Source of the DNA: Synechococcus sp.
GTDB lineage: Bacteria > Cyanobacteriota > Cyanobacteriia > Thermostichales > PCC-7336
Assembly: GCA_051439605.1 (NCBI GenBank)
Contig: JBFRWN010000076.1
Span: 11,140-75,139 of the forward strand
Length of the DNA: 64,000 nt
Direction of reading: 5' to 3'
Shown one piece after another: positions 44,376 through 48,035 of the stretch. Position numbers and translations under genes: made by a program. Below the pieces are notes generated by a model. The model was given only the letters and a program-made list of their open reading frames with translations. It did no database searches and had not been told where the DNA came from. Position 1 is the stretch's first letter, and each line of letters starts with the position of its first letter.

Positions 44376-46955
44376 ATGAGCCCCCGAGTGAAAGTTGCGA
44401 AAATCTTGTTTGCTGCCGAGGACTTTTTTCAGGAACAAACCAGTCGAGTCTTTGTGCAGTTGTGGGAAGCTGGCGAGCAGACTCAACGGACCTCAGGGGC
44501 TCGTCTGAATGCCGACCCGAAAATTTTAGAGCTGTACGAACAATGGCGCCAAGCCTACAAGAAGTATTACCGTCACTTGAGTCTCAGAGATGATTTTGAG
44601 CCGTTGGGAACGGTCAATCGCACGCGGGAAGAAGATGCGATTGACCTAGAGCAACTGAAGGGCGAACTGCAGCACTGTTCTCACCGGCTCGTCAGCCAAT
44701 TTAACGACTGGTTGAGTACTCAACCGGAGTTTCGAGAGGGGGTTGAAAATTGGTTGGGCGATCGATTCAACCTTGATGACGACGAAATTCGAATTGCGAT
44801 TGAAAGTGACGATCCCAATGTTAGACGCCTGCCCTGGCAAGCTTGGAAATTACTGGAGAGATTCGATCGCGCGGAGCTATCGATTGGCGATACTTACCAC
44901 GACAGCCGCAAAAAGCCACCAGCCAAGACAAAAGGCGATCGCCTCAAACTGCTCGCAGTCTTTGGCTACGCAGGAGGATTGAACCTAGATGAGGATCGTC
45001 AAACAATTGCAGGGTTACCCAATATCGAGGCAGAGTTCTGTGTACAGCCTTCTTTACAGGGGCTAAAAACAATTCTGCGCCAAGAACCCTGGGATGTGTT
45101 CTATTTTGGCGGTCACAGTTCTAGCGATTCTCTGGGTCAAACGGGAGTACTGTACCTGGACTCTCAAACGCCGATTGCCATCTCCCAATTAAAAGGGGCA
45201 CTGAAAACGGCCGTGCGGGATGGGGGACTGCAGCTGGGTATTTTTAATTCTTGCGATGGATTGGGGTTAGCTGCCGAATTAGAAGACGTCCATTTCCCTC
45301 TGTCGATTGTCATGCGGGAACCCGTGCCCAATGTAGTGGCTCAGCGGTTTTTGAAATATTTTTTGCAAGCTTACACTCGCGGCAAGCCTCTATATCTGGC
45401 TTTACGACAAGCACGACTCTTGCTAGAAGATGACAGCGAAGAGCTCCCCTACGTGCATTGGCTGCCCGCCATTGCTCACGACACCTCCACCAACCCCCTC
45501 CTTTGGCAGGATTTCGTCTCAGAGCAAGAGTCTCAAAGTCCCAACCCTCACCGTTCTGTTCCTCAGGATCTAACTCCTCCTGGAACAGTGCCCACTCGCT
45601 TACGAGACGCATGCCCATCGCAACCCGAGAGGGTTCCCACCAAACTTGCCGGTCCTCCTCCAATCGCAGAGACCGTTCGCACCTTCACCCCCACAACCCT
45701 TCTGGGGGGGGCGTATGAAGTCATTGACAACTTAAGTAGCGGAGGCTTTTCAGTCACTTACTTGGCCAGAGCTTTAGATTTGCCCGGACAGCCCCACTGC
45801 GCGATTAAACAGCTCAAGCCCATCCCCCTCAATGCGGACATGGCTCGAGCTCGACAAATGTTCCAGCGGGAGGCAGAAATTCTATTCAAGCTGGGCTCGA
45901 GCACCGATCGCATTCCTACGCTCTACGCCTCGTTTGAGCAAGAGGGAGAGTTTTATTTGGTGCAGGAATATATTGGGGGGGAAGAACTGGGACAAGAACT
46001 GCGGCGACGGGGACGGTTGAGCGAATCAGAAACGCTGGAATTACTCAAGGATATTCTTGAAGGCCTGGAAATCGTTCACAACCAAGACATTATTCACCGC
46101 GATATCAAACCCTCAAATTTGATGCGTCGCAAGTCTGATGGAAAAATCGTGCTGATTGACTTCGGGGCAGTCAAGGATGCAATAACAATCGCGGCTGCGC
46201 CCGATACGTCTAGCGTGCAAAGGGGGGCCAGCGTAGTGGGGTCACCTGGATTTATGGCCCCCGAACAGTCCTTGGGTCACCCGCAGCAGTGCAGCGATAT
46301 TTTCTCGGTGGGCTCGGTGGCGATTTGGGCAATCACGGGTCAGCCACCTATCCAGTCCATATCCAGCGAAGGGGTGACCGGAGCACTCGTGCGTCGCGAT
46401 CGGGTGCAGTTGAGCGATGGTATGGCAGAACTGCTCTATCGGATGACAGATGAGGAGAGTCAGAACAGGTTTGTCGACGCGACCGAAGCTCTGCGGGCTG
46501 TCAAGCAGTTAAGGGACAGGAATCCCAAACGGCAATCTCCCACTGCCATTTCACAGATAACAAGTTCGGAGACTCCTGTTTCGTCGCGCTCTGCTTCCAG
46601 ACAGTCCTCTCGCTTGAGCACCTGGGTGACGATTGGGATTGCAGCACTGGCAGTCTTGGGGGGAGGTTGGTTGGCGTGGATCCTGCTGTTTAAGCAAGAT
46701 TTAGAAATCCTACCGGTAGAGCCACCACAGGAGATAGAACCATCACCCACTGAATCTCTCCCCCCTGACAGTCAGTTTTGTCCGGGACCGCTATGTCCCA
46801 GGACTTCTACAACGGAGCCCATATCTCCTCAAGATGGACAGCTTGGCAATCCGAGTTCGTCGAACGATGTCCAACCTGCAGAGCCGATATTTCCGCAAAC
46901 AGGAGAACCCGCTGACAGTCAGTTTTGCCCGGGGCCGTTGTGTCCCAATCCCTAA
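44376..46955 (+). CDS. CHAT (caspase-like) domain, Ser/Thr kinase, TM and Pro-rich tail
   Basis: LPWQAW, FYFGGHS (His), IFNSCDG (Cys), VMREPV; SGGFS, AIKQL, HRDIKPSN, DFG, APE; TM WVTIGIAALAVLGGGWLAWILLF. Confidence 0.9.
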   Translation: MSPRVKVAKILFAAEDFFQEQTSRVFVQLWEAGEQTQRTSGARLNADPKILELYEQWRQAYKKYYRHLSLRDDFEPLGTVNRTREEDAIDLEQLKGELQHCSHRLVSQFNDWLSTQPEFREGVENWLGDRFNLDDDEIRIAIESDDPNVRRLPWQAWKLLERFDRAELSIGDTYHDSRKKPPAKTKGDRLKLLAVFGYAGGLNLDEDRQTIAGLPNIEAEFCVQPSLQGLKTILRQEPWDVFYFGGHSSSDSLGQTGVLYLDSQTPIAISQLKGALKTAVRDGGLQLGIFNSCDGLGLAAELEDVHFPLSIVMREPVPNVVAQRFLKYFLQAYTRGKPLYLALRQARLLLEDDSEELPYVHWLPAIAHDTSTNPLLWQDFVSEQESQSPNPHRSVPQDLTPPGTVPTRLRDACPSQPERVPTKLAGPPPIAETVRTFTPTTLLGGAYEVIDNLSSGGFSVTYLARALDLPGQPHCAIKQLKPIPLNADMARARQMFQREAEILFKLGSSTDRIPTLYASFEQEGEFYLVQEYIGGEELGQELRRRGRLSESETLELLKDILEGLEIVHNQDIIHRDIKPSNLMRRKSDGKIVLIDFGAVKDAITIAAAPDTSSVQRGASVVGSPGFMAPEQSLGHPQQCSDIFSVGSVAIWAITGQPPIQSISSEGVTGALVRRDRVQLSDGMAELLYRMTDEESQNRFVDATEALRAVKQLRDRNPKRQSPTAISQITSSETPVSSRSASRQSSRLSTWVTIGIAALAVLGGGWLAWILLFKQDLEILPVEPPQEIEPSPTESLPPDSQFCPGPLCPRTSTTEPISPQDGQLGNPSSSNDVQPAEPIFPQTGEPADSQFCPGPLCPNP

Positions 46956-47435
46956 GAACGTTGCAATAGATAGAGTAGTGCGAAGCCAGAGATCGCTGCT
47001 GACACTCTGCAAACATTCACCAGACAACAGCGCTCTGTTGTTGAGAGTTGAGCATATCAGCATCCTTTCCCCACTAGATATTGATGATGTAAGGGAACTA
47101 CTCAAGCGACCTGTAATGCGACACTTCCTGTGCTCGGGAGCTTGCTCTGGAAGGGCATAGTGGAATCGGATTGATACAATTCCATCCATCTAGGGCAATC
47201 GTCAAGTCGTTGAGGACCTGTCAGCTATTCAGACCTCTGATGAGCATATAGCGACTGTCAAGTTGCTTAGGACATTTCAGCGACCCCATTCCCTGGTAGA
47301 GCATAGATCGCTTGTCCTAACTGAAATGTTAAGAGCTATAGGTCTATCGATCCAAGCTAAAACTGTCCAGCTGTGAGGCAGGCAACCCTCTAAATCCGTT
47401 TTGCTTTTCCCGCTTTCCTCTAGTGGAGTCTATCC

Positions 47436-48035
47436 GTGCAAGCTCAATCTTTATTAACCGGTTTCACAGCTGCGATCGCTGCCATTGCTCATCTGGCCCT
47501 AACACTCCCTGCACAAGCCAGTGAAACCAAAATATTTTGTGGGATTCACAATGGGTATCCCACCACAATTGTTTCCTCGCCCCAATACGAAAACTTGCCT
47601 ATCATCGGTTGGACTTCGCAGTACTTTGGTCCCGAATACACACCGCAAACCCGTTGCGAGATTGTGTCACAGCGCTTTCAAGAGTTTATGGATCGGGGAG
47701 TGTTGGTTAATCTGACAACGGGAATTCTCAATGGCTACCCTGTGATCTGTGCAACTCCAGTACAGGGTGGAAGCTGTGATGGCAGACTGCTAATCACCCT
47801 CAAGCGAGGAGATAATTCTCGCCAGCGCTTGCAAGATATCCTCAATGTCTCAACCGGTCGGGGGGATACTATTTATGAAACTGGAGGCAGAGTCTACATT
47901 GATTTCCAGGACATGTTGCTTCAAAAAGCTGCTGACCTATCTGCAACACCCGCAGCAGAAGTACAGGCTTTACCAACTAGCGAGCAAGACCGTGGCCGAA
48001 GTGGTTTTTGCCCCGGTCCTCTTTGCAATGAATAA
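47436..48035 (+). CDS. COP23 domain exported protein
   Basis: Signal peptide; IFCG..GYPTT, W.S.YF...YTPQTRCEIVSQRFQ, G.LNGYPVIC, C..LLITL. Confidence 0.85.
   Translation: MQAQSLLTGFTAAIAAIAHLALTLPAQASETKIFCGIHNGYPTTIVSSPQYENLPIIGWTSQYFGPEYTPQTRCEIVSQRFQEFMDRGVLVNLTTGILNGYPVICATPVQGGSCDGRLLITLKRGDNSRQRLQDILNVSTGRGDTIYETGGRVYIDFQDMLLQKAADLSATPAAEVQALPTSEQDRGRSGFCPGPLCNE

Follow-up and report, generated by a model that had tools for sequence, protein, structure and literature searches.

Why should the tail of a membrane kinase and the end of a small, presumably secreted protein encoded next to it carry the same seven residues, FCPGPLC? The question is raised by a 64,000-nucleotide stretch of Synechococcus sp. 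DNA (GenBank assembly GCA_051439605.1, contig JBFRWN010000076.1, positions 11,140 to 75,139 of the forward strand), here called the window. In it, the open reading frame (ORF) of a Ser/Thr sensor kinase is followed, 480 bases downstream, by that of a protein of the COP23 family; the kinase tail holds two copies of the heptapeptide, the adjoining COP23 protein one (Table 1), and each copy is referred to below as a tag. A preliminary description, made from the sequence alone, had pointed out the shared peptide and proposed that it connects COP23 to the kinase. When the comparison was extended to other cyanobacteria, the conserved feature was found to be the end of the kinase tail together with a COP23 neighbour, and not the motif on both proteins.

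Three copies of one peptide in two adjacent genes

The six-frame translation of the whole source genome (4,897,348 bases in 143 contigs) contains FCPGPLC three times, all within 1.26 kb; a six-frame scan for the shorter CPGPLC likewise returned three copies genome-wide, all in the kinase and COP23 genes. Within the kinase ORF the two cores occupy residues 801-807 and 850-856. Of the 3911 rough ORF-genes of the genome, 11 end in any Cx4C arrangement, i.e. two cysteines spaced by four residues, and the CP..LC form is found only in the kinase and in COP23. The back-translated pattern TTYTGYCCNGGNCCNYTNTGY was searched across 401 genomes of the phylum, and only the source genome was matched in frame, by its three copies. 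One further match, in G125, was discarded as a chance occurrence, being out of frame inside a long ORF.

The two kinase copies differ from each other by 4 synonymous changes over 11 shared codons, while the COP23 copy differs from the first one in six of the seven core codons, again always synonymously. A metagenome contig from a near-identical strain (L034), 98.4% identical to window positions 44368-49435, shows 69 substitutions, none of which falls within residues 784-859 of the kinase or residues 89-199 of COP23. On a larger scale, 12 motif copies from 10 genomes (see below) use all four proline codons, all four glycine codons and five leucine codons, and the six residues CPGPLC are invariant. 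The positions and codons originally reported are thus borne out by the sequence and by the ORF check, and so is the statement that the peptide, rather than the DNA, is conserved.

A tandem repeat made of a 14-15-base unit (AATGAATAAGGGTGT, 4.7 copies) occupies window positions 48027-48096, starting within the last two codons and the stop of COP23. The near-identical strain is shorter by one 14-base unit, and its COP23 still ends N-E-stop, identical codons being supplied by the next unit.

Both carriers are predicted to be extracytoplasmic where the tags lie, in agreement with the preliminary description, on the basis of sequence features only. The kinase has a sole hydrophobic helix, preceded by basic and followed by acidic residues, and the tail beyond it contains four cysteines, all located in the two tags. 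COP23 starts with a signal-like sequence ending in AQA, followed by SE. Its assignment to the family is clear, since the profile PF14218 scores 118 bits against a cut-off of 27 over residues 34-161. The domain has four conserved cysteines, at positions 35, 74, 105 and 114; in an alignment of 122 COP23 sequences three of them are invariant and the fourth nearly so. The gene is single-copy in the source genome. An AlphaFold2 single-chain model reached a mean pLDDT (predicted local distance difference test) of 81.8, with a confident domain.

The same ending on kinases of other cyanobacteria

A search of 401 genomes of the class with a tandem-domain COP23 query led to a tagged kinase in genome G640, and the outside part of this kinase was then used to search 48 genomes of the family. 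Gene calls in the loci of relatives are longest-ORF approximations. The G640 protein, a Ser/Thr kinase of 650 residues, crosses the membrane with one predicted helix, places about 270 residues outside, includes a proline-rich linker and ends in VVNICPGPLCSE; the next gene encodes a COP23. Eight orthologous kinases were found in genus g255, having outside parts 58-100% identical and variable proline-rich linkers. All eight end [I/V]CPGPLC[S/T/A][E/Q]-stop, and COP23 is the next gene in eight out of eight. A kinase of another genus (G664, 38% identical) ends ICPGPLCNK, with COP23 2.8 kb downstream, and a second, paralogous kinase in G652 ends VCPGPLCVE, with COP23 directly next to it. In a third family, the 449-residue kinase of G077 (locus L157, 8802-10151, minus strand) ends in DCPPNVLCICPGPLCPN, where two cysteine loops adjoin each other (DCPPNVLC-I-CPGPLCPN). 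The first of these loops resembles the ECPP[L/V]LC ends of two tandem-domain COP23 proteins, P0003 and P0008.

Altogether, the ending [I/V]CPGPLC-x-x-stop is found in 11 further Ser/Thr kinases, which belong to three cyanobacterial families, and a COP23 gene lies within 3 kb in 10 of them; among more distant homologous kinases devoid of the motif, COP23 was found within 1.5 kb in 0 of 11. The association between motif and COP23 neighbour corresponds to a Fisher p = 3e-5, a value to be read knowing that the genomes are related, hence not independent. The bare pattern CPGPLC-x-x-stop produced 14 matches in 401 genomes, against 10 for a reversed control; 8 of the 14 terminate a long ORF in its reading frame. 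The wider pattern search called for in the preliminary description gives three copies in the source genome and a recurrence of the motif in 11 kinases elsewhere. The proposed COP23-kinase link is supported by 10 of these 11 kinases, whereas the sharing of the motif by both proteins is not conserved, the COP23 proteins in those loci being untagged.

The arrangement is part of a conserved cluster, present at L116 6040-13755 (G640) and also at L140 and L141, composed of the tagged kinase, COP23, a protein of 425-443 residues and a CHAT protein of 525-564 residues. COP23 is the sole predicted extracytoplasmic component common to the source cluster and to the g255 cluster of kinase, COP23, 425-residue protein and CHAT protein. 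The 425-443-residue proteins belong to no Pfam family and end ..GYAITF or ..GYALSF; the CHAT proteins have a signal-like N-terminus, and a DUF1400 hydrolase gene is next in two of the three loci. A different cysteine loop was seen at L105 (6024-7958, plus strand), where a 644-residue Ser/Thr kinase ending ..TPSCPLLGVEC is convergent to a gene for a COP23 of 335 residues, on the far side of which a kinase-WD40 protein is encoded.

Relatives within the genus

Two genomes of the same genus contain orthologues of the source kinase, 64-65% identical over the first 712 residues or so and with a replaced C-terminus. This level of identity reflects ordinary divergence, because a neighbouring housekeeping gene is 73% identical in the same genomes. 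After the kinase domain the orthologues continue into a long soluble region, with neither membrane helix nor motif, and no COP23 or DUF1822 gene was found in the 12-14 kb examined around them. In both loci (L018 3460-6696, minus strand; L019 5713-9258, plus strand) the region which replaces helix and tail is 350-450 residues long and includes two to three repeats of a module similar to QQIEQLS..L...LGPMAGVTI.NAL, for which no family name was found. Among 20 relatives, only two weak, tail-less COP23 genes were detected, both in G402.

These comparisons indicate a module swap within the genus, where the membrane helix, the tail with its tags and the COP23 neighbour are either all present or all missing. 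Absence of the motif from orthologues had been indicated beforehand as an observation that would speak against a function. The same-genus orthologues do lack it, but they lack helix, tail and COP23 neighbour as well, and the COP23-linked kinases of other families keep the motif invariant.

COP23 proteins and their C-terminal ends

To our knowledge, no function or partner has been assigned to COP23. A HMMER search (E <= 0.001) collected relatives falling into 1347 representative clusters, and the family is widespread in cyanobacteria, with relatives in 55 of 150 other genomes sampled. The ends were surveyed in the best 150 of the 1347 representatives. In 77 of these the last residue is tryptophan or phenylalanine (W/F), usually after a linker rich in proline, serine and threonine (LF 21, LW 21, IW 7, AW 7, plus others), while W/F ends make up 4.8% of the source-genome ORF-genes. 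Cysteine-loop ends account for 8 of the 150. The same 150 include P0041, a COP23 from a metagenome contig, 41% identical to the source protein, which ends in SLCPGPLCQSPQ, i.e. with CPGPLC; the tandem-domain proteins P0003 and P0008 end ECPPLLCN and ECPPVLCD, respectively.

In a quick maximum-likelihood tree of 67 sequences, the tag type follows the clade. Branch supports are given as Shimodaira-Hasegawa-like approximate likelihood ratio test (SH-aLRT) values. The source COP23 groups with P0041 (SH-aLRT 98). The kinase-linked COP23 proteins of family f20 belong to the opposite half of the tree, where they make up a clade of their own (SH-aLRT 99), so that the kinase link spans two clades. A further clade (SH-aLRT 99; L093, L094, L099, L101, L104) has R[D/E]L ends, namely ..GMRDL, ..GSREL, ..STREL and ..GLREL. 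Two Trypsin_2 genes come after the genes of this last clade, the second ending ..LPF, ..LRF or ..FRF. Paralogous COP23 systems residing in a single genome (G005, G466, G014) use different tag types, either W/F, R[D/E]L or cysteine-based.

The genes surrounding COP23 were analyzed in 52 loci, 47 of which were counted after removal of L028-L031 and L033, redundant or masked. At gene distance 1-2 from COP23, W/F ends are found in 28 of 186 proteins, versus 22 of 340 further away (p = 0.002), a count which includes porins ending in F as false positives. Trypsin_2 proteases are frequent among the neighbours; the C-termini of some read ..LPF or ..LRF, or are Cx4C loops (for example CGLFGC, CRFGICF and CLGVIC). 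The 47 loci also contain 15 Ser/Thr kinases, five of which, from five different families, end ..[L/E][W/F]: such an end is borne by five of the six kinases located beside a W/F-type COP23, versus none of the nine elsewhere (Fisher p = 0.002). Four of these five kinases carry the tag twice, one copy internal and one terminal, as the source kinase does with FCPGPLC.

Natural fusions of COP23 to other domains were also identified (Table 1): Trypsin_2-COP23, with COP23 at the C-terminal side, caspase (Peptidase_C14)-COP23, COP23x2-TPR-Trypsin_2 and fasciclin-COP23. Other searches were less productive. In a word-indexed protein search, whole COP23 matched only itself and one relative, and the kinase tail only itself; longer fused forms of COP23 gave no match, which by that method is weak evidence. 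A search based on a 5-sequence COP23 alignment returned 12 genome and 6 metagenome loci, with the cysteine tag only in near-identical L034. As to expression, COP23 is reported, in PMC6315102, among the most strongly day/night-regulated transcripts of some cyanobacteria.

A proposed docking peptide and its possible readers

The observations described so far give the tag the character of a short linear motif, placed at the end of a flexible tether, under strong selection at the peptide level and specific to COP23 clusters. The interpretation that we favour, and hold tentatively, is that FCPGPLC would be a disulfide-closed docking peptide, by which the kinase tail and the COP23 tail would both enter one reader encoded in the cluster, most likely the COP23 domain. 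Within each tag the cysteines would pair, as expected in the periplasm, closing a small Cx4C loop, which would be bound by the reader. In this scheme the membrane kinase would have secreted COP23 as its sensor or adaptor subunit, one able to detach. Two tags in each kinase tail would recruit two readers, or a dimer, favouring pairing, and this recruitment would influence the kinase and the fused or adjacent CHAT/sigma/DUF1822 module. The tag on COP23 itself would provide self-association or competition. COP23 is preferred as the reader because it is the only shared component predicted to be extracytoplasmic, and because it is found fused behind Trypsin_2, as PDZ domains are in HtrA.

Several results weigh against this assignment. 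In the AlphaFold2 single-chain model, residues 181-199 of COP23 have a pLDDT of about 60 and are not confidently docked on the domain; in P0012, a short-linker COP23 of the W/F type, the domain is again confident and the last block reaches only 77. A Foldseek comparison of the COP23 fold with the PDB gave no match at E <= 0.001, and a wide VIA comparison reached at best Z = 5.5, below the meaningful level and confined to 44-53 residues that recall half of a PH/PTB/FERM-C fold; by neither method was a significant likeness to PDZ or to a known peptide-binding domain seen. No COP23 gene lies within about 8 kb of the CPGPLC-ended kinase of G077. The COP23 partners in family f20 are untagged, for which reason the tag on the source COP23 needs an extra explanation, such as the self-association or competition mentioned above. 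Finally, W/F-type clusters also tag proteases and CAP, VWD and TPR proteins, and a general reader would fit equally well.

A less likely alternative is that the tag is read by a third protein of the cluster, the candidates being the exported Trypsin_2/FGE-like proteases found here and Trypsin_2 or Trypsin_2-TPR proteins elsewhere, for which it would be a degron, a substrate handle or an allosteric activator; the CHAT/sigma module would then be signalled to by proteolytic cutting of either COP23 or the kinase tail. DegS is activated by the C-termini of outer-membrane proteins, and TPR repeats read C-terminal peptides. Trypsin_2 genes flank COP23 in many loci, two of them lying 3-9 kb upstream in the window; proteases and other secreted neighbours bear W/F or Cx4C ends, with the W/F excess at gene distance 1-2 described above, and several COP23-linked proteases are fused to TPR repeats. 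However, the kinase-COP23 clusters of g255 contain no Trypsin_2 gene in the 14-20 kb examined, and internal copies of the tag have no free carboxylate. The nearest relation of the FGE-like domain of the proteases is moreover PvdO rather than a genuine formylglycine enzyme, and the tag is unlike CxPxR.

The FGE-like domains were also considered separately as readers of the tag and set aside: the domain is PvdO-like, CxPxR does not fit, and such a protease is missing from the g255 clusters.

It is improbable that the tag senses redox state or metal (Cu/Zn) through its cysteine pair, such that the state of the tail cysteines sets the activity of the kinase and the pair on COP23 serves as exchange partner or buffer. 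This would suit the fact that the only cysteines of the tail are the two Cx4C pairs, and would agree with the disulfide-exchange handle suggested in the preliminary description; according to PMC6315102, COP23 transcripts of other cyanobacteria swing strongly between light and dark. Yet other COP23-linked kinases have, at the same position and often in two copies, W/F tags free of cysteine, and the residues P, G, P and L vary no more than the cysteines do. Because of these cysteine-free equivalents and of the P-G-P-L invariance, recognition by a protein is favoured over thiol chemistry.

Comparably improbable is a sorting, retention or covalent-attachment signal, directing for example to the outer membrane or the cell surface and read by general envelope machinery. 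Many known sorting signals are C-terminal, and the tags do lie at the extreme C-terminus of signal-peptide proteins, past long flexible linkers. However, a kinase anchored in the inner membrane cannot be sorted onward, the motif is followed by 2-3 residues and the stop, not by a hydrophobic helix or a basic cluster, and the tag is absent from all other proteins of the source genome. Since this last observation is joined by the use of different tags by paralogous COP23 systems of one genome, a cluster-specific, cluster-encoded reader is suggested instead.

Chance similarity, or a recent local DNA copy by gene conversion without function, is hardly credible: the motif is short and same-genus kinase orthologues do without it, but there are three copies here and none elsewhere in 4.9 Mb, the copies differ at 4-6 synonymous sites with an unchanged heptapeptide, and 11 kinases from other families have the identical hexapeptide in the corresponding position.

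A broader view can also be taken, although it is on the doubtful side. COP23, a clock-controlled envelope protein of cyanobacteria, might be the reader of a code of short C-terminal tags specific to this phylum (W/F, R[D/E]L, and Cx4C such as CPGPLC), by which envelope signalling complexes would be built up from HtrA-like proteases, caspase-like sensors and membrane Ser/Thr kinases. COP23 would be a functional counterpart of PDZ built on an unrelated fold, and bivalent tags would drive the pairing of kinases.

Gene neighbourhood

The features of the locus are collected in Table 1, together with the fused forms of COP23 found elsewhere.

Table 1. Features of the kinase-COP23 locus (window positions) and carriers of COP23 fusions (positions within the named loci).
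Feature	Position	Strand	Description
Exported protease 1	37718..39388	+	Trypsin_2 (Pfam E 1.2e-22) and FGE-sulfatase-like, PvdO-like (Pfam E 1.7e-54)
Exported protease 2	39307..41079	+	Paralogue of protease 1, same domain layout; Trypsin_2 (Pfam E 1.1e-25), FGE-sulfatase (Pfam E 1.4e-47)
Presumed sigma factor, 418 residues	41814..43070	+	Weak likeness to sigma-70 region 3/4
DUF1822 protein	42941..44308	+	PF08852, E 5e-54, residues 79-445; directly upstream of kinase
Sensor kinase, 859 residues	44376..46955	+	N-terminal constant region; CHAT, caspase-like (residues 223-378, Pfam E 1.4e-07); Ser/Thr kinase (Pkinase, residues 447-698, Pfam E 1.4e-33); membrane helix; tagged tail
Predicted membrane helix of kinase	46623..46691	+	Residues 750-772, WVTIGIAALAVLGGGWLAWILLF; hydropathy scan and sequence
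Predicted extracytoplasmic tether, 87 residues	46692..46952	+	24% proline
Tag copy 1, DSQFCPGPLCP	46767..46799 (core 46776-46796)	+	Internal, 52 residues before the kinase C-terminus
Tag copy 2, DSQFCPGPLCP	46914..46946 (core 46923-46943)	+	3 residues ahead of the kinase stop
COP23 protein, 199 residues	47436..48035	+	Signal-like N-terminus (residues 1-28), COP23 domain (residues 34-161), linker, C-terminal tag
Tag copy 3, SGFCPGPLC (core FCPGPLC)	core 48006..48026	+	Followed by N-E-stop in COP23
COP23 fusion carriers	L107 6762-8381; L092 10768-11991; L027 9001-10302; P0033; P0143/P0146	+ (L107, L092, L027)	

The likely starts of the two proteases are MKFKRRQLI at 37778, with a twin-arginine-like signal, and MKFRRRQLI at 39406. 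For the FGE-like domain of protease 1, the closest solved chain is PvdO (5hha, E 1.1e-38). The tandem pair (37718-41079) shares the twin-arginine-like stretch MKF[K/R]RRQLI; COP23-linked proteases found elsewhere either stand alone or carry a TPR, WD40, PPC or pilin-like domain. The presumed sigma factor matched no Pfam family, and NCBIfam sigma models scored 12-18 bits (E 0.0017-0.079) against cut-offs above 230 bits; its place ahead of DUF1822 agrees with the EACC2-caspase neighbourhoods of PMC8195603. The listed ORF of the DUF1822 protein overlaps the preceding gene, and its true start is probably further downstream. Apart from a word of the GCGATCGC type, no upstream promoter motif of at least 9 bases shared by the cluster genes was found.

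Just upstream of the cluster lies an RTX-type pair, formed by an HlyC-type acyltransferase (33857-34345) and, encoded directly after it, a 1042-residue RTX calcium-binding repeat protein (34474-37602). A 193-residue ORF at 63363-63944 (minus strand) starts with PTAPEA repeats, ends in ..LPELPALPALPELPTMGF and belongs to no Pfam family; it is among the few proteins of the genome having a proline-rich tail ending in F.

Comparison with known motifs and systems

Full-text searches turned up no paper with CPGPLC and, judged by the titles, no relevant COP23-kinase link, in line with the earlier remark that no described motif like it is known; papers on COP23 in cyanobacteria seem to be mostly transcriptome studies. 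Docking peptides are known as a kind; no account seems to exist of this tag, of its cysteine-loop form or of the way in which it ties COP23 to Ser/Thr kinases. An invariant short peptide tying COP23 to particular Ser/Thr kinases offers a concrete protein-protein hypothesis, and matching W/F tags tie COP23 to kinases and proteases in a similar manner elsewhere. In genomes holding several kinase, protease and COP23 paralogues, the tag classes could help to predict which of them are partners.

Two cysteine motifs with defined chemistry differ from the tag. The substrate motif of the formylglycine enzyme is C-x-P-x-R, and in C-P-G-P-L-C there is no arginine at +4; thioredoxin-type sites are CxxC within a thioredoxin fold, whereas the spacing here is of four residues, in a proline-rich tail without domain match. 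The tag resembles the inhibitory loops of Bowman-Birk and SFTI-1 and the C-terminal disulfide loop of type IV pilins in being a small, proline-containing, cysteine-bounded loop outside the cytoplasm, in a system where trypsin-like proteases occur; those loops, however, are Cx7C or longer, against Cx4C, and the tag has no basic P1 residue.

Like the PEP-CTERM/exosortase, LPXTG/sortase and GlyGly-CTERM signals, the tag is short, conserved and located close to the C-terminal end of exported proteins. Unlike it, those signals continue into a membrane helix and a basic cluster, while here the stop follows after 2-3 residues and one carrier is an inner-membrane kinase; no NCBIfam sorting domain was matched by either the kinase or COP23.

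LuxP-LuxQ and TorT-TorS are pairs in which a periplasmic co-sensor protein docks on a membrane kinase. The gene of a secreted protein beside that of a membrane kinase with little or no folded outside domain is reminiscent of them, although their partners bind the folded sensor domains of histidine kinases, and not short C-terminal peptides.

In HtrA/DegS proteases, the aromatic C-termini of envelope proteins (YxF-COOH) are recognised by PDZ domains, which triggers a sigma-factor cascade. The source cluster similarly brings together exported trypsin-like proteases, a presumed sigma factor and short C-terminal peptides, which are of the W/F type in most COP23 relatives, and in Trypsin_2-COP23 fusions COP23 takes the C-terminal place that PDZ has in HtrA. 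On the other hand, there is no PDZ domain in the source cluster, the COP23 fold shows no significant resemblance to PDZ and the tag is a cysteine loop, one copy of which is internal; the carriers include a kinase. The tags here end N-E or P-N-P, and not with the free hydrophobic or aromatic residue of PDZ ligands, while the 77 of 150 COP23 relatives counted above do end in W/F.

The closest parallel to the gene order is provided by the EACC2-caspase system, in which, according to PMC8195603, caspase-bearing proteins have a variable C-terminus, Ser/Thr kinase included, and are encoded beside an extracytoplasmic function (ECF) sigma factor and DUF1822. The kinase described here likewise combines a constant N-terminal region and CHAT with a variable C-terminus bearing a Ser/Thr kinase, and DUF1822 and a sigma-like gene, the likeness of the latter being weak, lie directly upstream. 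It departs from the system in its variable C-terminus, which closes with a membrane helix followed by the tagged tail; COP23 is mentioned nowhere in PMC8195603, where neither a C-terminal tag nor an exported partner is described. If the docking of FCPGPLC is correct, an exported arm, with a recognisable address label, would be added to EACC2-caspase/sigma/DUF1822 systems, so far described only from their cytoplasmic parts.

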